Below are positions 3,367 through 28,566 of a DNA stretch of 64,000 bases, piece by piece (the first letter of the stretch is position 1; each line of letters opens with the position of its first letter). The notes under the pieces were generated by a model. It saw only the letters and a list, made by a program, of their open reading frames with translations, did no database searches and was not told the DNA's origin. The translations under genes were made by a program, and so were the position numbers. The stretch is from Chloroflexota bacterium (GTDB lineage: Bacteria > Chloroflexota > UBA11872 > VXOZ01), in assembly GCA_026710945.1 (NCBI GenBank), contig JAPOQA010000031.1, forward strand, positions 50,611 to 114,610, in the 5' to 3' direction.

Positions 3367-3740
3367 TCGGCCGCGCCCAGCAATCGCTTGCAGCAAGCCT
3401 GGTTTGCCGCCTATCCCCATCTGGATGGAACGCGAGTGCTCGCTTTCGTTACTATCCCGGCGCCAAAGGCACAGAGTTTGCCCCAAGAATGCTCTACGGC
3501 AAGCTTTGCCCTAGTCCCGGCCAGCCCTTAAGTGGGCTATCGGCCGCAAGGCTCTCATAGATTCCCCGCTCCCGGGTTTCACAGTTGCCTCTCCATGGGG
3601 CTCATCTTGCGTGAGAGCGACACAGCAACGGCATACAGAATCCAACACCGAAAGATTTCACCGCGCCGAGACCATCCAGCCTGCATAGCGGATTCTTGCT
3701 TGGTTGCTACAGCGCTCTACGCCCTGCTACTATCGCTACT

Positions 3741-6017
3741 ATGAGCCGCTTTCTTTCCACCCTTGCGACACCTCTCGCGGGCTTCCAACCGTCCTTGGAA
3801 GACGCACCAAAGCACTCGCCACGCTTGATTGGTGTTATCTTTCTGTTCTTCTTCTTGCTGTACACCCTAACCGGCGGCGGTCATGTTTACAGCGCAGAGG
3901 GGGAACACGCATACGCCATCAGCCACAGCCTCCTCTTGGAGCCGGAACGCGAAGGCCTGCAGCAAGACTATCGCGAACTCGCATCGTGGGAGTTGGGGCT
4001 ACCGGTCTTGATGCAACCCACCTTGCTCCTAGGCGCCATCATCGATCCTTTGCTGCCCCAGAGGGATGCATTTGGGCATCAGGGAGACACATATGTGCTG
4101 GGAGAGTATCCGGTACTTGCACGACGAGGCACGCCCAATACTCGCGATACACTCCATATACCCCTTGAGGACACACGAGCCAAGGCGCTCGTAATCTTTT
4201 CCAATTTGGAATCATCTCAAGAGATCAAGGAAGGTTCGCGTATCGCCACGATTACGTTTGACACCGTCCCCGTAGGTAGATTCTTTGGAGAGGTGAAGGC
4301 CGGGCGAGACACTGCAGAGGCAGCATACGACCTTTCTGTCATTCAAGGAGGAGTGGCGCATGGCAAGGCTGAGACTGTGGCTCGTCGCATCGGCATGCCC
4401 AGGTCCAACATCTACGTCTCAGAGCTGCAGTTTACACAGCGCTTGACCGTTAAGAGCATCACCATCCAGTACCACGCACAAGAAGGCGCGTTGCACATAT
4501 CTTCTCTTAACCTCATAGACGCCGAGACTGACGAACCTATACTGATCGGCTCCACTGGAAGAGTATGGTCCGAGCAGGAAAACAGTGACTATTTCAGGCG
4601 CTTATTTGCGCTCTTTACCAACGCCTGGGTAACCGCCCTCAGTGCGGTGCTCATGTTTCTCATAACGCGACGCCTGGGATACCACAGCCAGGTCGCCCTT
4701 GCCTTGACGTTGCTCTTTGGACTAGCCACGCTTGCGTGGCCGTACGCCAAGTATGACTATACTGAACCGGGAATTGCTCTCGCTCTCTTGGGTACGGTCT
4801 ATTTCCTGCTGCGGGGTGTCCAAGACCGGCAATTGGGTTGGATTCTTGTCAGCGGACTCATCATTGTGTGCGGCATTGCCATTAAGTTTGTTACGGCAAT
4901 CAATCTGGCTGTCCTTGTTCCGCTGCCGGCACTCGTTTCATTCCAGGGCTCCCGCCAATTCCTGCGATCCCTCGCTTGGGCTCTCGTACGCACTCTCGTA
5001 TTCCTGGCCCCGATAGGCCTTGTTGGCCTCGTGGCACTCGTCGCGCTTGTGTCTGCATCGGACCTGGAGTCTTTTGTGCCTACCGACTTGATCGAGAGAC
5101 TTTCCGCCGGGCTCGACCTGCCGACATGGATTGGTCTGTATGGCAACCTGTTAAGTCCGGGGAAGAGCGTCCTGCTCTATGCGCCACCCCTCATTCTTGC
5201 TCTCTTTGGGAGTCTGCCGTTCATATCGCGACACAAGTGGTGGTCGCTTCCATTCGCGTGCATACCCCTGATCTACTTGCTCATCTATAGCAGTGCAGGC
5301 GACTGGTATGGCGGGAGTACCTGGGGACCGCGCTACCTGGTTCCTGCCGTACCTCTGCTGCTGGTGATGGCTGCGCCAATTCTAGAGAAAGCGCTATTTG
5401 ACAATGGCGTGAGAGAATTGCGGGCCGCCGTGGTTCTCGGCGCTGTAGGAATCGGTATGCAACTCCTCGCCGTCGCCAATAACTTCGAGCGGTACTTCAG
5501 CCTGCTGCGTTCCCAGGTCTTGCCGCAGATTCCGGAGAGCGGCGCGTTTCTGGCCGGACGTGTAGGACAAGCATATTACGCCCATCCTGCAAACTTGCCA
5601 GCCGATAAGGAGAGTGTCCTCTATCTTTTTGCGACACCATTTTCGCCCATATTCGCCCACATCTGGATTCTGGCGGCAGACACAGTGGACCTTTTCCTGA
5701 TTTCAAGCCCCGAAATCCTGCGAGCCGTGCTAAGTCGTCCTCCATGGACTTTGCTGGGAGTGGCAATTTGGCCTCAGCACCCCGAAGAGGTGCTGGGTCT
5801 GGACTTCTGGTCGATGACATTGTGGCGGGACTTTACCAACCACGCCATCCTTCTCGCGTTCATCTTAATCTTCGTATTGGCCTGCCAGGCCGCAACCCTC
5901 TACTGCTGGACGTGGCTAAGCCAGCGTTTCGAGCTAAGCATGCGGCTCTATTGGGGTGGAATTATCGGCCTTGCGACGTTCTTTATCCTGTTCGATGTGT
6001 CCCACATTCTTCAATAG
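3741..6017 (+). CDS. large polytopic membrane protein, possible GT-C-type (PMT/ArnT-like) glycosyltransferase
   Basis: ORF 3696..6017; N-terminal TM (VIFLFFFLLYTLTGGG) followed by the acidic AEGEH motif, a ~300-aa loop domain and then >=10 predicted TM helices; start codon uncertain (3696 or 3741). Confidence 0.4.
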   Translation: MSRFLSTLATPLAGFQPSLEDAPKHSPRLIGVIFLFFFLLYTLTGGGHVYSAEGEHAYAISHSLLLEPEREGLQQDYRELASWELGLPVLMQPTLLLGAIIDPLLPQRDAFGHQGDTYVLGEYPVLARRGTPNTRDTLHIPLEDTRAKALVIFSNLESSQEIKEGSRIATITFDTVPVGRFFGEVKAGRDTAEAAYDLSVIQGGVAHGKAETVARRIGMPRSNIYVSELQFTQRLTVKSITIQYHAQEGALHISSLNLIDAETDEPILIGSTGRVWSEQENSDYFRRLFALFTNAWVTALSAVLMFLITRRLGYHSQVALALTLLFGLATLAWPYAKYDYTEPGIALALLGTVYFLLRGVQDRQLGWILVSGLIIVCGIAIKFVTAINLAVLVPLPALVSFQGSRQFLRSLAWALVRTLVFLAPIGLVGLVALVALVSASDLESFVPTDLIERLSAGLDLPTWIGLYGNLLSPGKSVLLYAPPLILALFGSLPFISRHKWWSLPFACIPLIYLLIYSSAGDWYGGSTWGPRYLVPAVPLLLVMAAPILEKALFDNGVRELRAAVVLGAVGIGMQLLAVANNFERYFSLLRSQVLPQIPESGAFLAGRVGQAYYAHPANLPADKESVLYLFATPFSPIFAHIWILAADTVDLFLISSPEILRAVLSRPPWTLLGVAIWPQHPEEVLGLDFWSMTLWRDFTNHAILLAFILIFVLACQAATLYCWTWLSQRFELSMRLYWGGIIGLATFFILFDVSHILQ

Positions 6018-6986: not shown

Positions 6987-9900
6987 TCAAGGCGGTCCGG
7001 CCCCAGCAGTTTTCAATCCCTCTCCAGAACTCGTGGGTTTCCGGCTAGTAGTGTACACGATGGCGCACAAGGCCGCCGTTAACCAAAACCAGCTCGCCAG
7101 GTCCGGCAAGAAATAGTAATTGTCCAACATGCCGTGGGTTACTGCCGCGAGTTGGCTCCCAGCCAAGCCCACACCAAGAGCGCGTACTTCCTTTTCCCGG
7201 CTGGTATACGCAATGCGATGTGTGAGCATGAAGAAGCGCGCAAGATAGCCAACGATGAAGACGACTCCCACTATCCCGAGGCGCAGCCAGAAGTCAAGGA
7301 AGAGATTGTGCGGGTGCGACAAATTCGGCTCACGCCAGGCAGCCGGGTTCAAGTACTGCGCGTGGACATAGAGGTAGTTATCCAGACCTACACCGGTGAT
7401 CGGGTAGTCCGCGATCATCTGCAGGGATGACTGCCCATTAACGATTCGCATGTGCGTCGTTGTGCCTGGCTCGACACTTAGTACCGACCGCACCCGCTCC
7501 GGGCCAAAGTTGACGCCACCGGCAAACAGCAGCACCGCGACGAGGACTACGCCACCGAAGAAACGTACCCGTAGTCGGCGTTCCGGCAAGAGCACCCAAA
7601 TGAAGAACAGCAGGAGTATAAGCCCGGCTATCCATCCCGCGCGCGAGAAGCTGCCCAGCAACGCCACCGCGAGCACACCTGCGAGCGGCCAAGCCACACG
7701 GGAGGGCCAAAGCTTGAACATGCCGGCAGCGACCACAAACGGCAGCGCCCGTTCGACTATCATCGCAAGGTGATTGGGCGAGGGATAGAATCCCGAGAGC
7801 CGAATCACGCCTTCTGCCTGCACCGCAGCATTGGGGTCGATGATGGGCCCTGCCAGCGCCACTGCCGCCGCCACGGCCGCGCCCGCCACAAACGCCTGTA
7901 TCAACCGCCACGCCTGCTGCCGGTTTTCGAGCAGCCAGCTTGCGACCAAGAACAATAGCACCGGCACAACTATCGTCTGGCGCAACTCGCGCAAACTAAA
8001 GACCCCATAGTGGGAAAACAGGAGCGACACCGCACCGATCACGAGCAAACCGACAGCCCACCAGGTAAAGACGCGCCGTTCAACAACCAAGCGCTGCCTC
8101 ACGAACGTGTGCACCAGCAGCGACCCGACGAGCAGTGCCGCCAGAATCTCATTGACGGGCAGCGCGAGGCGACCGGCGGCGGGTGTCAAAACGGAGAAGG
8201 GCAGTGTTGCTGCCACAACGAACAAGAGTGCACGGGGCCAGACCAGTGCGGCAAGGCCAAGCAGGGCCACGAGCAAATACTGCGCCGCCGCTCCCGGCAC
8301 AATCCACAGCAGACCGGCCACCGGCAGCAACAACCCGAATCGAGCCGTCTCATGCTGCCATATGCCACTGGCAGTCCGTTCCATGATCTTGCCGAGAAGC
8401 TCGCTAAGCTGACGCCGTTGCCGCAGCCATCCGGTAAGAATCCAGCCGATTGCGGCAATGAATCCCGCGTACAGCCCGCCTACAAGTACATAGGGCCACA
8501 AGGGACGTTCCCGCACGACGACTATGGCATCGATGTCTACCCCAATGTCGCTCGACTGTAGGTTGCGCCGGCCTGTGACTTCGATCTCAACAAGGTGCTC
8601 GCGATCCGGGAGTCGATCTGCCAGCAGCACTTCTTCTTGCCAGCGGTCTTCAGGTGCGTAAAGGTCCAGCATGGCCTGACCGCCCGCGTCCTTGTCCAGG
8701 CGGTGGGCAAGAGACTGCGAGCCGTTGATGCGCACCAATGCAATGCCCTTGTCCGGCCCTTTGTGGACTACCAGGGAGACTGCCGTGCCATGAAAGCGAA
8801 AGCGCAGGCGGGCGCCCGCCTGCGGGCTGCCCCGCGCCTGACCCAGCGAGTAGGTTTCATTGGCGATGTCGATCCACTCGCCCTCCCAGGCGAGCGCGGG
8901 ATGGTTCTCCTGATGGTAGCCCGGCCCGAGTACGGGCGGCGCGCCCATCAAATCCCGCATGGCCGCAAGCACCGGGCGCTGTGCGAATTCCTTATCCACA
9001 ATGCCGAAGTATTGCGTGGGGTCATCGGGGTGGGCTTGGGGCCAGTAGAAGTGCCAGAGATTTATCATCGGCAGCCACGGCCACTCGCGTTGCGCGCGCT
9101 GCATGCCCTCCACTGTGTAGCGTGCCTGCGTCGCTTCCGAGACATTGCCCCAAGGCGAAGGACTGCCCTGCCAGTCCGTTGGCAGCGCGACCCACCCGTA
9201 CTCTCCGGCCCAGATGGGTTTGGACGCGTCGCCGTTTCGCACCATCACTTCCCGTACCAACACCGCTCGCGCCATGTTCGTGCGGTGTCGCGCTATGTAG
9301 CGGTCATCCGGGCCGTGCCACAAGCCATAGGACGCCGTGCTGACCACGTCGAAGTACGGCGCGCCGCCGTGCGCATAGATGCCCTCGAGAAAGAGCAGCT
9401 CACTGAGGTTCTTGGGACCGGTCTCAGTCGTCGGCGCCAACACGGCGGCAACGATGATCGCCTTCGGATTCGCCTGCCGGATACGCTGCGAGGCCACTTG
9501 GAGCATCGCCACGTAGGCCGCCGGATCGGGATTGTGCGGCCACCATTCGCCATGGAGATTGGGTTCATTCCAAATTTGGAAGATCTGCACGTCCCCGCGG
9601 TACCGCTGGGCAAACGCATATGCAAAGTCTCCATAGTCCTCAAGCCGTGCCGGTGGGCCCTGTTGACGCCCGTCGTCCGGCGGCTTGTCGTCGGCATACG
9701 CCCAAGGTGGGGGTCGTTCGAGGCGCGCGATGATCGTCAAGTTGTGTTGCTTCGCCAGCGCGACCAGCCGGTCGTACTTCTGCCAGGTACTTTCCTCGGC
9801 AAGGTCGTTCCAGTACCTTCCCTTCCACGGACGCTCGATGTCCTCCCAGGCAAAGACCTGCCGGATGTAGCGAAAGCCTGCTTCTTCCAATAACGCCATG

Positions 9901-10103
9901 CCGCGCTCGATACGATCCCAATCCGGGTCTTGATCGAAGCGCGTATTGATGCCGTAGCGATACACCGCGGCGTGGCGGAGGGGGTGCACGGATTCGCGTC
10001 CGTAGGCGACGCCGGTTTCAAACCAGAAGCGGTAGCCGACCAAGGCCAGCGTCGCGGCGCAGAGCACCAGAAGACAACCAACAAAGAGGAGTAGTCGCAC
10101 CAC
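6987..10103 (-). CDS. fusion membrane protein: N-terminal TM anchor, clan GH-A-like glycoside hydrolase domain, and C-terminal O-antigen-ligase (Wzy_C / WaaL / PglL-like) polytopic domain
   Basis: 1038 aa; the N-terminal 350 aa carry GH5-like motifs (IWNEPNL acid/base, AGEYGW nucleophile); a middle beta-rich domain follows; the C-terminal ~500 aa have >=10 TM helices with Wzy_C hallmarks (FSRAGWIAGLILLLF, SHPHNLFLDFWLRLGIVG). Confidence 0.65.
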   Translation of the reverse strand: MVRLLLFVGCLLVLCAATLALVGYRFWFETGVAYGRESVHPLRHAAVYRYGINTRFDQDPDWDRIERGMALLEEAGFRYIRQVFAWEDIERPWKGRYWNDLAEESTWQKYDRLVALAKQHNLTIIARLERPPPWAYADDKPPDDGRQQGPPARLEDYGDFAYAFAQRYRGDVQIFQIWNEPNLHGEWWPHNPDPAAYVAMLQVASQRIRQANPKAIIVAAVLAPTTETGPKNLSELLFLEGIYAHGGAPYFDVVSTASYGLWHGPDDRYIARHRTNMARAVLVREVMVRNGDASKPIWAGEYGWVALPTDWQGSPSPWGNVSEATQARYTVEGMQRAQREWPWLPMINLWHFYWPQAHPDDPTQYFGIVDKEFAQRPVLAAMRDLMGAPPVLGPGYHQENHPALAWEGEWIDIANETYSLGQARGSPQAGARLRFRFHGTAVSLVVHKGPDKGIALVRINGSQSLAHRLDKDAGGQAMLDLYAPEDRWQEEVLLADRLPDREHLVEIEVTGRRNLQSSDIGVDIDAIVVVRERPLWPYVLVGGLYAGFIAAIGWILTGWLRQRRQLSELLGKIMERTASGIWQHETARFGLLLPVAGLLWIVPGAAAQYLLVALLGLAALVWPRALLFVVAATLPFSVLTPAAGRLALPVNEILAALLVGSLLVHTFVRQRLVVERRVFTWWAVGLLVIGAVSLLFSHYGVFSLRELRQTIVVPVLLFLVASWLLENRQQAWRLIQAFVAGAAVAAAVALAGPIIDPNAAVQAEGVIRLSGFYPSPNHLAMIVERALPFVVAAGMFKLWPSRVAWPLAGVLAVALLGSFSRAGWIAGLILLLFFIWVLLPERRLRVRFFGGVVLVAVLLFAGGVNFGPERVRSVLSVEPGTTTHMRIVNGQSSLQMIADYPITGVGLDNYLYVHAQYLNPAAWREPNLSHPHNLFLDFWLRLGIVGVVFIVGYLARFFMLTHRIAYTSREKEVRALGVGLAGSQLAAVTHGMLDNYYFLPDLASWFWLTAALCAIVYTTSRKPTSSGEGLKTAGAGPP

Positions 10104-13050: not shown

Positions 13051-14466
13051 CTACTCCGGCACCGGAGTGGGGGGCGGTTTCGGAGTGAGATACTCCTCGA
13101 TAGCGTCGTGGGCGTTTTGCGCCGCTTCCTCAATGGAAACTTGGCCCCGCGCCACGGGCAGGGTGAGCCGGCTGAAGATCTGCCAACTCAACACGGTTGA
13201 GGTTGCCAGGTGGGAAGGCACACTGTCCACCAGGAGTTCCAGCAATACGTCCCGCGCTATGGGGTCGAGCAGCAAGGACATGTACTTGCCGGCCGGCTTG
13301 TTGATGAATCCCTGCGCTTCCGTAACGGCCGGCACCAAGCGAATCTGGCCGAGGTGATGTCCCAGATGCAGCATGGTCGCGAAGCCCGCGTCGCCATGCT
13401 GGCTGCCGACCGGCATCACCAGCGCCTCCTGCAGGCCGAGTGGTGTCCCGCTGCGGTCTTCTTTGGGTATCACTGCGGGCATGCGGTCCGCCCTCAGCCT
13501 GCCAAAGAATGGATTGAAGACCATCGCTGTCTGCAGGCGCTGGCCGTCAATGGTGCCGCGCAGCGTATTGGAGTCTACATCCGGGCCATGTGGCATAACG
13601 CCATGGATGCGGCCGAGTTCCTGCCAGAAGCGGATGCCGCGCTGCGCCGCCGGTTCGGTGAGCTTGATCTCCCCCGTATCCAAATCTACGGCGTCGCCGC
13701 CCTCTTGGAGCACAAAAGGCAGCCAGCCCGGAATGCTCCACTCCGTATATCCCCAGAAGTCGATCTTCGTATCGCCGTCAACGTCCCGGGTCAGTGACTT
13801 GGCCGCGAAGATGAAGTCCTCGTGGTTCCACGTGTGCGTCGGCGTCGCTACTTTGAATTCCTCAAACTTTGTGCTGTTGTACATCACCATAGCCGGCAGC
13901 ACGGCCAGCGGCACGGCCATGAGCTGGCGCTGGTAGCGCGACAATTGCAGCGCGTTTCCCGCGAAAGACTCAAGCAGGTCGCTGTCCTCCGTCTGGGCGT
14001 AGCGATCCAGCGGCGCGAGGATTTGGTGGGTAAAGGCGCGCGGAAAGTCCAACGCGGAGTGCATCCAGGCGATGTCGAGCGGCGCACCGCTCGCGTCGCG
14101 GGCGACGACGAACTCCCAAAATGCATCACGCCACGACTTACCGCTCGGCCGCAGTATCTCTACGGCTTCTAGCTGAGAGCGCGGCGTGGGGCCGTCAATT
14201 TGCTCCTCGTTCCAGGCGCTGATGGCATTGCTGGCCTCGGTGGGGATGCCGGCGAGGCGCGCCATAAAGGCAAACGTCAGGGTCACCGGCTCGGCTGATT
14301 GGCCGCCGTCGGATGATCGCGGGGCTTCCCGGAATGGCGCATTGCCTTCAAGCTCGGGCCTTGCGCTTGCGCGCCCCGGACCCCCGCCACAGGCCGCGAG
14401 TACTGCAGCACTCCCACACAAAGCAGCCAGCGTCGCCACACACTCTCGTCTCGTCATCTCGTTCAC
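13051..14466 (-). CDS. extracellular solute-binding lipoprotein, ABC-type sugar SBP family 1, with no adjacent permease
   Basis: 471 aa; signal peptide with lipobox LAACGGG; SBP_bac_1-like fold pattern. Confidence 0.7.
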   Translation of the reverse strand: MNEMTRRECVATLAALCGSAAVLAACGGGPGRASARPELEGNAPFREAPRSSDGGQSAEPVTLTFAFMARLAGIPTEASNAISAWNEEQIDGPTPRSQLEAVEILRPSGKSWRDAFWEFVVARDASGAPLDIAWMHSALDFPRAFTHQILAPLDRYAQTEDSDLLESFAGNALQLSRYQRQLMAVPLAVLPAMVMYNSTKFEEFKVATPTHTWNHEDFIFAAKSLTRDVDGDTKIDFWGYTEWSIPGWLPFVLQEGGDAVDLDTGEIKLTEPAAQRGIRFWQELGRIHGVMPHGPDVDSNTLRGTIDGQRLQTAMVFNPFFGRLRADRMPAVIPKEDRSGTPLGLQEALVMPVGSQHGDAGFATMLHLGHHLGQIRLVPAVTEAQGFINKPAGKYMSLLLDPIARDVLLELLVDSVPSHLATSTVLSWQIFSRLTLPVARGQVSIEEAAQNAHDAIEEYLTPKPPPTPVPE

Positions 14467-14505
14467 CCTGATTCGTCAAACGCGTATACTTCTGAATCCT
14501 CGTCA

Positions 14506-15825
14506 CTAACGAGGCGGTGAACCGAGCCATTCACGCACCACGGCGGCACCGTTCTCCAGGGCGGCAGGGGCAGCGAGACTGCCTCTCAGCGCCGGCAAGG
14601 CCATCCGCTCGGTCAAGGTCTTCCCTAATCCACTATACAACGAGAGCGTAGTGCCGACACTATACGAGAGGCTTCGCAAGACCACGTCCGCTCGGTCCAG
14701 CCCCAATGCAAGGTCAGCGTGCATGCGGTTGGGACGACGGATGAACTCAATTGCGTTATTGCGCGGTGGCACCAGCAACTGTGACCCTAGTTGTGCGGCC
14801 AGCGGTTTGGCAACGGCGTAGGCAGCGTCAATATTCGCGCTGTGCGCGGAAACGCCAACCATGTCGGTGACCAACATGGGTAGGGATTGGGACGGCCCGT
14901 TGGGTGTCCCAACAAAGGCGAACGGCAATGAGTAAGGCTCCGTGTTGTGCCAGTTGATGAGTTCGAGGCGCAGCGGCGCTGTGGAAGAACCGTTTCGCCG
15001 CCGCATAACTGCATCCATGGTGACGTGCGGCCCGCCTTCCAGCGCCCGATAGCGGTGTGCAAGTTCCATCCAAAAATGCAGCCCGCGCCGGGCCTCTGAC
15101 TGGTCAAGCGTCGTTCTGCCGGCGCCAAGATCGGCAACCCGCCCGCCTGCGCCAACAATTAGAGGCAACCAAGCGGGAACGGTCGTCGTGCCAAACCCCC
15201 AAACTGTGCCCTTGTCCGCGGTGTGTGTCAGCGCCGCGGCCATCGTGGCAAATTCATCCCACGTCCAACTTGACAGCGGCGACGGCACCTCGCGCGCCGT
15301 GAGAACTTCAGTATCATACCGCACTGAAAGAATGCCCAGCGCCGCCGGGAGCGCCATTTGCTGTCCCCAAAACTCTAGGGCGCGCAATGACTCCGGATGG
15401 TAGCCCTTCAGTGTATTGTTGGTGTCGTTATCGAGAAAAGGGTTTAAGGGACGCAGCAAATCGCCGCGCAAGATCTCCGGGAGGTCATCCTGCAAACTGA
15501 ACCAGACAACGTCAGGAGCCTCGCCTGCCGCAACGCGCTGGCGAATTGCGGTCACAAACGAACGGCCGGGCGTGGCTACGATCCTGTGTACTTCTCTGAT
15601 GGTGGGTATGCCGTCGCGCCCGCCGGGCGCCAACCCGTAGCGCACTGTCGGCAACGCCTTGTCCAATACGGCGTTCACCCGGTCACCGGCTCGCACGGCA
15701 ACGGTGACGGTGACCTCCTCCGGCACTGGCGTCGGCGCATCGGGGGCGCCGCGTTTACCGCAGGCAAGCAACAGACCGCTGCCAAGGCCTGCACTGCCGG
15801 CTCGTAACAATTCTCGTCGCGTCAT
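14506..15825 (-). CDS. extracellular solute-binding lipoprotein, SBP family 1 paralog, with a TAT-like signal
   Basis: ORF 14506..15891; probable start at MTRRELLRAGSAGLGSGLLLACG (TAT-like RR plus lipobox); paralogous to the downstream SBP. Confidence 0.65.
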   Translation of the reverse strand: MTRRELLRAGSAGLGSGLLLACGKRGAPDAPTPVPEEVTVTVAVRAGDRVNAVLDKALPTVRYGLAPGGRDGIPTIREVHRIVATPGRSFVTAIRQRVAAGEAPDVVWFSLQDDLPEILRGDLLRPLNPFLDNDTNNTLKGYHPESLRALEFWGQQMALPAALGILSVRYDTEVLTAREVPSPLSSWTWDEFATMAAALTHTADKGTVWGFGTTTVPAWLPLIVGAGGRVADLGAGRTTLDQSEARRGLHFWMELAHRYRALEGGPHVTMDAVMRRRNGSSTAPLRLELINWHNTEPYSLPFAFVGTPNGPSQSLPMLVTDMVGVSAHSANIDAAYAVAKPLAAQLGSQLLVPPRNNAIEFIRRPNRMHADLALGLDRADVVLRSLSYSVGTTLSLYSGLGKTLTERMALPALRGSLAAPAALENGAAVVREWLGSPPR

Positions 15826-15913
15826 GGGCAAGACCCCCCGCAAAGAACTGTCCTTAGGGTACATACTCCCACTGCGCTTCAAATGTGTCAATCGCCTGGC
15901 GCAATGTTCCGGC

Positions 15914-16576
15914 TCAACTACGGAGCGCGAACTTCACCAGGGTCCACAACGCGTGCGGCCCGTCAATCCAAGGATTGAGCTTGCGCTCTCTGCGTGGCGT
16001 GTAAGATATCGGCACCTCACGAATGCCATAGCCTAGCTTCAGGATTTTCGCCGTGATCTCCGGCTCCAATTCAAAGCCCGAAGACTCGATAGTGAATCGA
16101 TCGACAACCTCCCTGGCCATCATCTTGTAGCACGTCTCCATGTCATGCAGCGAGGCCCGAAACAGGATACGTGTTACGAGGGTAAGGAAAACATTGCCGA
16201 GACGCCGGACGAACTCCTGGTGTTCCAACGATCGCACGCCATAGACCACCTTGGTCTCGCCCCGCGCGATCGGTCCCAGCAACGCCGGAAAGTCCGCCGG
16301 ATCATACTCCAGATCAGCGTCCTGAATGACGATCACGTCTCCCGTCGCCGCCGCCAACGCGGTGCGAATTGCCGCGCCCTTTCCTCTATTCTCCGGGTGA
16401 TAAACTACGTGGTACCGCTCGTCCTGGAGAGACTGTAACACTGCTGTCGTGCCGTCCGATGAGCCATCGTCTACGATGACGATCTCTTTCTCCAAAGAGA
16501 CGTCCGCCACGCGCTCCAGAACTGCGCGCACGGTCTCGCATTCGTTGTAGACCGGAATCAAAACGGAGAGTTTCAT
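15914..16576 (-). CDS. GT2 family glycosyltransferase, polyprenol/dolichol-phosphate mannose (or glucose) synthase-like (DPM1/Ppm1 catalytic domain), no TM segments
   Basis: ORF 15914..16606; start at MKLSVLIPVYNE; motifs VIVDDGSSDGT, QDADLEYDP; ~220 aa soluble domain. Confidence 0.8.
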   Translation of the reverse strand: MKLSVLIPVYNECETVRAVLERVADVSLEKEIVIVDDGSSDGTTAVLQSLQDERYHVVYHPENRGKGAAIRTALAAATGDVIVIQDADLEYDPADFPALLGPIARGETKVVYGVRSLEHQEFVRRLGNVFLTLVTRILFRASLHDMETCYKMMAREVVDRFTIESSGFELEPEITAKILKLGYGIREVPISYTPRRERKLNPWIDGPHALWTLVKFALRS

Positions 16577-16867
16577 AGCAGCTATACCATCGGTTGCAAG
16601 AATCAAACACCCAAACGCACTGGGAGGAGCGAGGCACTCAGGGAATGCCCAACGGGGCTAGGGGTGTCGGCAAATGCGTAGCTCAGAGTAAGTCAGGTCT
16701 AGGTTGGTTTAGGAGCGCCCCTACTATATCATTGGGTCCATAACTGAGTAAACACCTCCCACGATTCGAACTTGCCGGCGCCAAGCTGCACTGCTCTCGA
16801 GACCAGGGCAGGCCGCGACCGCGCTGTGCAGGATCATCTCCCATAATTCAGCGCCAAGGAGCACACA

Positions 16868-27345: not shown

Positions 27346-28566
27346 ATGTCATTGTCCGCAGAAGAACAAGCGTTATTGAATGGCGAGAAGCGCAACCTGC
27401 CGTTCCTACCGGCGCTGGGCGGCTGGTACAACGAAGAAGAGGTGGAAGCCCTGACCCAAGCGCTCCGCGAGAGCATGGACTGGAGAGTCGGCTTTACCGG
27501 CAACGACATTACGGAGTTTGAACGGGAATTTGCCGAGTATTGCGACGTAAAGTACGCCTATGCTGTGAATTCTTGTGGCACCGGTCTCGATGGGGCGATG
27601 CAGGCACTGAACCTCGGCCCGGAAGATGAAGTGATCGTACCGGCCATTACATACATAGCGACCGCCCAGGCGGCAGTCGGCGTAGGCGCGAAAATCGTGT
27701 TGGCCGAGTGCCACCCGGATACTTTCAACATCGACCCCAACGACGTGGAACGCCGCATGACGGCAAACACCCGCGCCATCATGCCCGTCCACAATAACGG
27801 TCTCTCCGCCGACATGGACGCCCTGGCAGATATTGCCGAACGACATCCCCACCCCACGCACGGCCCGCCCCCCGTGGTCGGCGATGCCGCTCGTGCCGCC
27901 GGCGGCGGCTACAAGGGCACCCGCGTCGGCAAGAAGGGCGCCATGAATATCTTCAGCTTCCAGACCACCAAGAACATGACAACCCTTGGCGAGGGCGGCA
28001 TGGTGACGACGGATGATGACGATTACGCGGCCTACATCAATAGCAGCCGCTCGTTTGGCTGGGGATTGAAGGGCTGGGGTACAAACTACCGCCTCACCAA
28101 GTTGCAGGCCGTCGCCGGTAGAATCCAGCTTGCGCGGCTCGACGAAATGAACGACCTGCGCCGCGACCGTGCGTTGTTACTCTCCGAGTGTCTGGCCGAT
28201 GCGCCCGGTGTCATTATTCCCCAAACCCCAGCAGGTTACGATCACGTGTGGTACGGCTATACGGTCATGCTGGAATCTGAGTGGGCCGGTGAGCCGCGCG
28301 ATAAGGCTTTAGAGCACATGCAGTCCGAATACGGCGTTGGCGGTGGCATTATGAATGCCGCGCTCCCCGATTACGACTCCATTTTGAATAAGATGGGCCA
28401 CAAGCCGGAGGACGTGCCCGTATCGACCGATCTTGGTCGGCGTCTCTTCTGCCCCTCGCTCCATCCGTTGATGAGCGACGACGACGTAGCGTACGTCGCG
28501 GCCTCAATCAAGGCGAGCATGGAGACAGTGGCGGGGACTGTTGGCGCCGCTGCGGTTGCGCGGTAA
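27346..28566 (+). CDS. DegT/DnrJ/EryC1/StrS family PLP-dependent sugar aminotransferase
   Basis: 406 aa; motif FSFQTTKNMTTLGEGGMV (PLP-lysine region). Confidence 0.8.
   Translation: MSLSAEEQALLNGEKRNLPFLPALGGWYNEEEVEALTQALRESMDWRVGFTGNDITEFEREFAEYCDVKYAYAVNSCGTGLDGAMQALNLGPEDEVIVPAITYIATAQAAVGVGAKIVLAECHPDTFNIDPNDVERRMTANTRAIMPVHNNGLSADMDALADIAERHPHPTHGPPPVVGDAARAAGGGYKGTRVGKKGAMNIFSFQTTKNMTTLGEGGMVTTDDDDYAAYINSSRSFGWGLKGWGTNYRLTKLQAVAGRIQLARLDEMNDLRRDRALLLSECLADAPGVIIPQTPAGYDHVWYGYTVMLESEWAGEPRDKALEHMQSEYGVGGGIMNAALPDYDSILNKMGHKPEDVPVSTDLGRRLFCPSLHPLMSDDDVAYVAASIKASMETVAGTVGAAAVAR

Follow-up and report, generated by a model that had tools for sequence, protein, structure and literature searches.

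A PslG-like glycoside hydrolase joined to a Wzy_C membrane domain in Chloroflexota, a candidate bifunctional enzyme of envelope-glycan assembly

Described relatives and the fusion gene

The glycoside hydrolase (GH) PslG of Pseudomonas aeruginosa (CAZy family GH39; PDB 5bx9, 4zn2 and 9g17) is a member of a Wzx/Wzy-type pathway, and both its membrane association and its activity matter for synthesis (PMC6813494, PMC13434223). Hydrolytic activity and association with the inner membrane are required for the synthesis of Psl, and PslG is counted as a component of the machinery (PMC6813494); as an endoglycosidase, it cleaves Psl between the repeat units, and PslJ is the Wzy-type polymerase (PMC13434223). 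Here, we describe a gene that joins a hydrolase of this kind to a polytopic transferase domain in a single polypeptide. The gene lies in a 64,000-nucleotide stretch of the genome of a Chloroflexota bacterium (contig JAPOQA010000031.1, positions 50,611 to 114,610), hereafter called the window, and its 1038-aa product has an N-terminal PslG-like GH module and a C-terminal half of the Wzy_C family (Table 1). We read this protein, with a probability of about 0.6, as a bifunctional envelope-glycan assembly enzyme in which the synthesis and the cleavage of one polymer are coupled.

The families of both halves are already known, through members or distant members, as is the logic of PslG working with a Wzy enzyme. 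Pfam Wzy_C spans WaaL, Wzy polymerases such as PslJ, and PglL, TacL and IctB. Degrading enzymes that are encoded with, and needed by, a synthesis machine also include BcsZ, PelA, AlgL and PgaB, which act as individual proteins in the periplasm of synthase-dependent systems; to our knowledge, none of them is covalently joined to its glycan transferase. What is new is that the two halves are covalently fused, that the GH module is anchored twice in the membrane and that, across the phylum, this module is paired with two classes of lipid-donor glycosyltransferase. Literature searches for the GH-Wzy_C architecture found no description of it.

The fusion protein is real and widespread in Chloroflexota. 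Its open reading frame (ORF) on the minus strand is intact, running from a GTG start at 10103 to a stop codon at 6987-6989. Because orthologues of the same length (P0001-P0017, 73-97% identity) come from independent assemblies, and because the locus of a close relative (L001) is syntenic with the window around the gene, the fusion is not a sequencing artefact; the many full-length orthologues likewise exclude a frameshift or an assembly error as its source. An AlphaFold2 (AF2) model made from an alignment of 60 sequences has a mean predicted local distance difference test score of 87.2 and a predicted template modelling score of 0.79. An initial annotation, made from the DNA alone, had called the GH and Wzy_C domains from four motifs (IWNEPNL, AGEYGW, FSRAGW and SHPHNLFLDFWLRLGIVG): all four are found, and both domains score above the curated Pfam thresholds. 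A scan for promoters and terminators around the gene returned nothing above the shuffled expectation. In public databases, members of the family are named 'O-antigen ligase family protein', 'cellulase family glycosylhydrolase' or 'PslG', the first of which overlooks the hydrolase half.

Table 1. Position of the fusion gene and its features in the window.
Feature	Residues	Window position	Strand	Basis
Whole fusion gene		6987..10103	-	ORF, full-length orthologues, AF2 model
First transmembrane helix (TM1), N-terminal anchor, N-terminus inside	4-22	10038..10094	-	Hydropathy peak 2.9; model helix 2-29
Predicted extracytoplasmic (beta/alpha)8 GH domain, clan GH-A, PslG/GH39-like	41-389	8937..9983	-	Pfam, PDB-sequence and Foldseek searches, own hidden Markov model (HMM)
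IWNEPNL, predicted acid/base E180 (N179-E180-P181)	177-183	9555..9575	-	Aligns with WNEPN of PslG
AGEYGW, predicted nucleophile E301	299-304	9192..9209	-	Aligns with STEWGW of PslG
Beta-sandwich, as in PslG and GH39 enzymes	392-532	8508..8930	-	All-beta model; own HMM, 186 bits
Second transmembrane helix (TM2), chain back to cytoplasm	about 536-561	8421..8498	-	Hydropathy (about 539-557), model helices
WaaL/Wzy-type polytopic domain, about 14 helices, GT-C fold of the WaaL/SEDS kind	580-1021	7041..8366	-	
FSRAGW; R821 aligns with R191 of C. metallidurans WaaL	819-824	7632..7649	-	Profile alignment
HMRIV; R886 aligns with WaaL R265		7440..7454	-	Profile alignment
SHPHNLFLDFWLRLGIVG; H930/H932 align with WaaL H311/H313; in large outside loop 867-943	929-946	7266..7319	-	Profile alignment

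Hydrolase half, transferase half and membrane topology

The N-terminal half matches the Pfam Cellulase/GH5 family PF00150 with 32.6 bits against a gathering threshold (GA) of 23.5 (E 7.6e-8, residues 65-218), over profile positions 23-164 of 272 and hence over part of the catalytic domain. A typical GH5 ('Cellulase') assignment was nevertheless dropped for a PslG/GH39-like one, as both sequence and fold searches of solved structures rank PslG and GH39 first. A phmmer search of the PDB sequences recovers PslG (E 4.8e-8) and GH39 beta-xylosidases (8e-5) and no other solved relative, while Foldseek places PslG 5bx9 first (E 5.8e-18) and GH39 xylosidases next, all of its top 10 hits being PslG or GH39. 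Since the Foldseek alignment has 476 columns against a 414-residue target, it takes in the barrel as well as the beta-sandwich, a domain absent from the initial annotation that lies between the barrel and TM2 and has a weak CE2_N match in Pfam. Our own GH-family HMM scores the window protein at 541 bits. The homologues carry mixed Pfam tags: PF00150, PF01229 (GH39) and PF02449 (GH42). Because the Pfam GH39 model itself stays below threshold (11.9 bits against a GA of 26), the module would by sequence be at best a distant subfamily or a sister family of GH39.

The predicted catalytic residues are conserved in nearly every aligned homologue: E180 is invariant (60/60) and E301 is kept in 59/60. 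In the alignment with PslG, QIWNEPNL pairs with QVWNEPNL and IWAGEYGW with IWSTEWGW, and when chain numbers are converted to protein numbers by one constant shift of 26, the aligned glutamates fall on E165 and E276, which we take to be the catalytic residues of PslG. The AF2 model has alternating strands and helices over residues 50-350, as expected of clan GH-A. The module is a PslG/GH39-like member of this clan and probably an active retaining glycanase; the earlier call of a clan GH-A retaining glycosidase thus holds, with both catalytic glutamates aligned and the family detail revised. What the protein shares with PslG is the N-terminal transmembrane anchor, the barrel, the beta-sandwich, and the WNEPN acid/base and ExGW nucleophile motifs. 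PslG differs in being a protein of its own, 442 aa long and anchored once, and identity over the fold alignment is about 18%; the fusion protein, for its part, has a second transmembrane helix and a covalently attached Wzy_C enzyme, comes from a monoderm-type phylum and has no PslD- or PslE-like export proteins nearby.

The C-terminal half, called a polytopic Wzy_C domain from the start, scores 81.8 bits against Pfam Wzy_C (PF04932; GA 31.7, E 5.8e-23, residues 810-950). A single-sequence search of this half against PDB sequences gave no match, while a 9-sequence profile matches WaaL of Cupriavidus metallidurans (PDB 7tpg/7tpj) at E 1.1e-11 for 7tpg, with about 15% identity. The fold is superposable with the WaaL/SEDS class of GT-C enzymes and has a large outside loop carrying histidines. 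In CmWaaL, R191, R265 and H311/H313 reportedly bind the undecaprenyl diphosphate donor, as Ashraf et al. are said to have found in 2022. Of 28 fused proteins, 21 carry R at the position of R821, 6 carry K and 1 carries V, and R886, H930 and H932 are kept in all 28; R886 is also present in 17/17 stand-alone Wzy_C relatives. The differences from WaaL include about 14 helices rather than 12, a 560-residue N-terminal extension and a set of extra invariant residues (E652, R708, R768, R785, D908, E925, D937, H990 and D994) that define a distinct subfamily. A lipid A-core acceptor is also implausible in Chloroflexota, which lack genes for lipopolysaccharide (LPS) and BAM and whose envelope layers are believed to consist of polysaccharide or protein (PMC13319060). 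The NCBIfam matches to IctB and RfaL are far below threshold (RfaL, 36.8 bits against a cutoff of 277); by this score and the missing LPS genes of the phylum, the domain is no WaaL in the strict sense of an LPS O-antigen ligase. Fused and stand-alone Wzy_C paralogues both keep the Arg/His site and are equally conserved, with mean identities of 41% and 39% over 45 genome pairs, and we discarded relative conservation as a discriminator between polymerase and ligase.

The hydropathy profile, the positive-inside pattern and the AF2 helices, read together, place the GH ectodomain outside the cytoplasm. A hydrophilic stretch of 512 residues separates TM1 from TM2, and TM2 is followed by a cytoplasmic linker (558-588) with six lysines or arginines and then by the polytopic region. 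The layout of the AF2 model agrees: the barrel (about 50-390), an all-beta region (about 392-532) and a long helix (536-561) precede about 14 further helices with a large loop at 867-943. When the helices are set against the positive-inside rule, the invariant polar residues of the Wzy_C half (E652, R708, R768, R821, R886, D908, E925, H930, H932, D937, H990 and D994) all fall at predicted outer ends or loops. The model thus fits a location of both the ectodomain and the large Wzy_C loop on the outside. The initial annotation had asked for such a topology and had described a single anchor; the N-terminal anchor is present, but two transmembrane helices flank the ectodomain.

Distribution and gene neighbourhoods in the phylum

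The GH module was searched for in one genome per species, giving at least 581 relatives, nearly all from Chloroflexota, and 80 species-level loci were scanned with HMMs built from our own alignments. A GH-Wzy_C fusion is present at 22/80 loci, and the two halves are adjacent genes at 3/80. At 20/80, an unfused GH-beta-sandwich gene stands directly before a gene for a PMT_2-type GT-C glycosyltransferase, often with overlapping stop and start; at the other 35/80, the GH module is alone, has a different downstream gene or is cut by the contig end. A search with the Wzy_C half alone against 1.84 billion cluster representatives gave 251 matches at E<=1e-30; among the best 150 of these, 66 have an N-terminal GH and/or beta-sandwich and 84, some of them fragments, have Wzy_C only. 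In a neighbour-joining tree of the GH domains, which is rough and has no bootstrap, the Wzy_C-fused forms sit on several deep branches, and the PMT_2-linked forms group apart in a large clade of their own. The GH-Wzy_C fusion is common and ancient within Chloroflexota, so that the 'unusual' of the initial annotation applies to the literature and not to the phylum. Close and distant homologues of the fusion protein all come from Chloroflexota, excluding two GH relatives on short metagenome-bin contigs that are labelled as Solirubrobacteraceae (L069) and Acidobacteriota (L080); mis-binning or rare transfer are possible explanations of these labels.

The unfused GH-beta-sandwich proteins of Anaerolineae that are paired with PMT_2 genes share with the window protein a GH module of 36-45% identity, both anchors and both catalytic glutamates, and differ in having a PMT_2-type GT-C protein rather than Wzy_C as the partner. 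Enzymes of the PMT_2 type typically use polyprenyl-monophosphate sugars. The partner genes encode 650-870 aa (for example at L005 10001-13715, L007 10001-14300, L020, L022, L029, L032 and L035). One protein with the shared features, P0076 (L004 10001-13795), is a GH-beta-sandwich-PMT_2 fusion, and its cluster holds a Wzy_C gene, three further PMT_2 genes, GT4 and GT2 glycosyltransferases and a Bac_transf initiating transferase. P0076 had been a candidate GH-Wzy_C protein; a Wzy_C HMM without P0076 in its seed ruled this out, and the protein is clearly GH-PMT_2. Of the unfused GH-beta-sandwich ORFs scored, 38/63 begin and end with a hydrophobic peak, and a basic tail comes after the C-terminal peak. 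The ectodomain was therefore stapled to the membrane at both ends before the fusion arose, and joining it to a polytopic partner with its N-terminus inside required no new topology.

The fused proteins are not uniform in their catalytic residues. In one deep clade of 11 fused loci (L016, L025, L027, L028, L030, L033, L036, L060, L063, L077 and L084), WDEPN or WDQPN replaces WNEPN, and 10/11 members have lost one catalytic glutamate through a change of E301 to N (5) or Q (2) or of E180 to Q (3). The aromatic cleft residues W178, W187, Y243, W304, W341 and W343 are kept throughout. In this clade, the GH module could be a dead binding domain or could use a substrate-assisted mechanism involving the D-E pair. 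The window protein belongs to a clade that keeps both glutamates.

Within 10 kb of the 22 fused loci, an extra GH gene is found at 9 and an extra Wzy_C gene at 7. A paralogous GH gene often directly precedes the fused gene (L002 8824-9978, L009 9914-11062, L010, L011, L012, L015, L024, L026, L054, L057, L089 7902-10001 and L090 8391-9977), so that two GH modules stand side by side at such loci; these paralogues encode 382-750 aa, have K in place of R81 and the motif WFNEYGWN, and usually retain both catalytic glutamates. In distant lineages, the fused gene is part of ordered clusters (L089 7900-23000, L090 8400-18500 and L091 1800-12000) in which a GH paralogue, the GH-Wzy_C gene, an NAD-dependent sugar epimerase/dehydratase and a stand-alone Wzy_C gene follow one another. 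The same clusters hold LPG_synthase_TM, GT4 genes, a Polysacc_synt (Wzx-type) flippase and a Bac_transf initiating transferase. Genes of the Wzx/Wzy pathway flank the distant fused homologues at L089, L090 and L004, and not the window gene. In the four clusters read, we found no member of the Wzz/Wzc polysaccharide co-polymerase (PCP) families or of the Wza outer membrane polysaccharide export (OPX) family, and the locus is unlike a Psl-type operon, that is, a pslA-L-like cluster with PslE and PslD.

The window itself is a housekeeping stretch of roughly 59% G+C that encodes DAHP synthase, aroA, mnmA, alaS, recA, hisS, secD, thyX and alr. Here and around an 81%-identical orthologue, the neighbours of the fusion gene are mnmA, yjbQ, a GT-C-like polytopic protein and aro genes, with a trio of GT2, solute-binding protein and lipoprotein genes 6 kb away. 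The GT-C-like gene (3696-6017, plus strand) encodes 773 aa with about 12 hydrophobic segments and a loop of roughly 180 aa after the second, and it adjoins yjbQ in L001 as well; its similarity to PMT (21.9 bits against a GA of 22.7) and to the glycosyltransferases LA_3751/LA_3752 is below threshold. The trio (13051-16606, minus strand), also present in L001, consists of a 230-aa GT2 (15914-16606) most like polyprenyl-phosphate hexose synthases of the AglJ/DPM1 kind (again below threshold), an SBP_bac_1 solute-binding protein and a 471-aa protein with a lipoprotein-like N-terminus (LAACGGG) and no family match. Elsewhere in the window, just one further gene with a clear link to glycans was seen; it encodes a DegT/DnrJ/EryC1-type sugar aminotransferase (27346-28566, plus strand) and lies 17 kb from the fusion gene. 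In relatives with 39-45% identity, the neighbours differ and include NYN, an apurinic/apyrimidinic endonuclease, a GH paralogue and mnmE. The initial annotation had cited the GT-C-like and DPM1-like neighbours in support of a glycan role, and this support is weak, since the adjacency is found only in the close relative L001 and is lost at 39-45% identity. The GT-C-like gene was likewise rejected as a conserved partner: its product does not match the family of PMT_2 partners, its PMT and LA_3751 similarities stay below threshold, and its adjacency does not last in more distant relatives.

Weighing the possible functions

In the reading that we prefer, the Wzy_C half would move a polyprenyl-diphosphate-linked glycan on the outer side of the cytoplasmic membrane, either to the next lipid-linked repeat unit, as a polymerase, or to a final acceptor, as a ligase. 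The PslG-like module, a putative retaining endo-glycanase held beside the transfer site by a transmembrane helix at each end, would cut the same polymer for trimming, release or quality control, and the fusion would hard-wire the known association of PslG, bound to the membrane, with the Wzx/Wzy machinery of Psl. The proposal of the initial annotation, that a surface glycan is trimmed and transferred in a coupled way, remains the best reading in this form; the sharing of one glycan by both halves, the substrate and the outcome of the cut are what we infer. The leading version pairs a polymerase with release or trimming, which we hold tentatively and at somewhat less than even odds.

Several observations weigh against the coupled enzyme. 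The sequence and fold of the Wzy_C half separate neither polymerase, ligase nor protein O-oligosaccharyltransferase, the family definition also spanning PglL-type enzymes. No flippase, initiating transferase or GT4 gene is found near the fusion gene in the window, and because the gene sits among housekeeping genes, its pathway membership is taken from distant relatives. Since a deep fused clade lacks one catalytic glutamate, hydrolysis may not be a role that the GH module has kept in every lineage.

Ranked below the polymerase version is a ligase of the WaaL or TacL kind, which would pass a finished polyprenyl-diphosphate-linked glycan to an acceptor other than lipid A, such as a glycolipid or wall polysaccharide, with the GH cleft binding and perhaps cutting or transglycosylating this acceptor so as to open a site of attachment, and the stand-alone Wzy_C protein serving as the polymerase. 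Retaining GH-A enzymes can transglycosylate, the nearest solved relative is the ligase WaaL, and NCBIfam gives a weak RfaL match; moreover, clusters in relatives have two conserved Wzy_C paralogues each, suggesting one polymerase and one ligase, and the family is conserved across the phylum, unlike the usually hypervariable Wzy polymerases. Yet the stand-alone paralogue is equally ligase-like (IctB and PEP_O_lig_1 matches) and equally conserved, neither Pfam Wzy_C nor the WaaL fold tells ligases from polymerases, and the classical acceptor is absent from a phylum without LPS biosynthesis genes (PMC13319060), all of which leaves the ligase possible though rather doubtful. The clade that has lost a glutamate in 10/11 members while keeping its aromatic cleft would fit a module that serves mainly as a glycan-binding chain-holder and would act as a built-in co-polymerase or ruler in place of Wzz-type proteins, with hydrolysis dispensable. 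The four cluster contexts read, with no PCP/Wzz or OPX genes, are consistent with such a role. For the window protein we consider it improbable, as its whole clade keeps N179-E180 and E301, and the near-invariance of these residues over 60 homologues argues for catalysis.

The fusion might also be incidental, with functionally unlinked halves: a nutritional cellulase or hemicellulase, or a PglL-like protein O-oligosaccharyltransferase. The best Pfam family is named Cellulase, NCBI names the unfused relatives 'cellulase family glycosylhydrolase', and Wzy_C does take in PglL-type enzymes. An ectodomain stapled at both ends, as in the unfused relatives too, would be odd for attack on an insoluble external substrate, however, and the nearest characterised relative is the biosynthesis-associated PslG and no cellulase. 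Repeated fusion to or adjacency with two lipid-donor glycosyltransferase families (Wzy_C and PMT_2), together with biosynthetic clusters, is unexpected by chance, and we regard an incidental fusion as very improbable. At the other extreme lies an extension of the coupled enzyme to the whole phylum, in which the doubly anchored PslG-like module would be the dedicated partner of Wzy_C and PMT_2 lipid-donor glycosyltransferases, would replace the Wzz/Wzc co-polymerases and would act as a chain-length-setting transglycosylase or 'cut-and-insert' enzyme that works new glycan into the polysaccharide layers of the envelope; the clade with D-E in place of N-E and no nucleophile would have switched its mechanism, for instance to substrate-assisted catalysis, or become a pure chain-holder. 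We offer this extension as speculation and think it unlikely.

If both halves of the coupled enzyme share one glycan, the fusion would be 'Rosetta-stone' evidence that PslG-type hydrolases are integral to Wzx/Wzy machines and not just a means of clean-up, an idea so far argued only from Pseudomonas genetics, and it would offer a single-polypeptide system in which to study how synthesis and cleavage are coordinated. Such coupling is not surprising in principle; the family provides a clean, widespread and testable case in which it would be hard-wired. For Chloroflexota, whose multilayered envelopes are built without LPS, the family marks a conserved and probably housekeeping glycan pathway.

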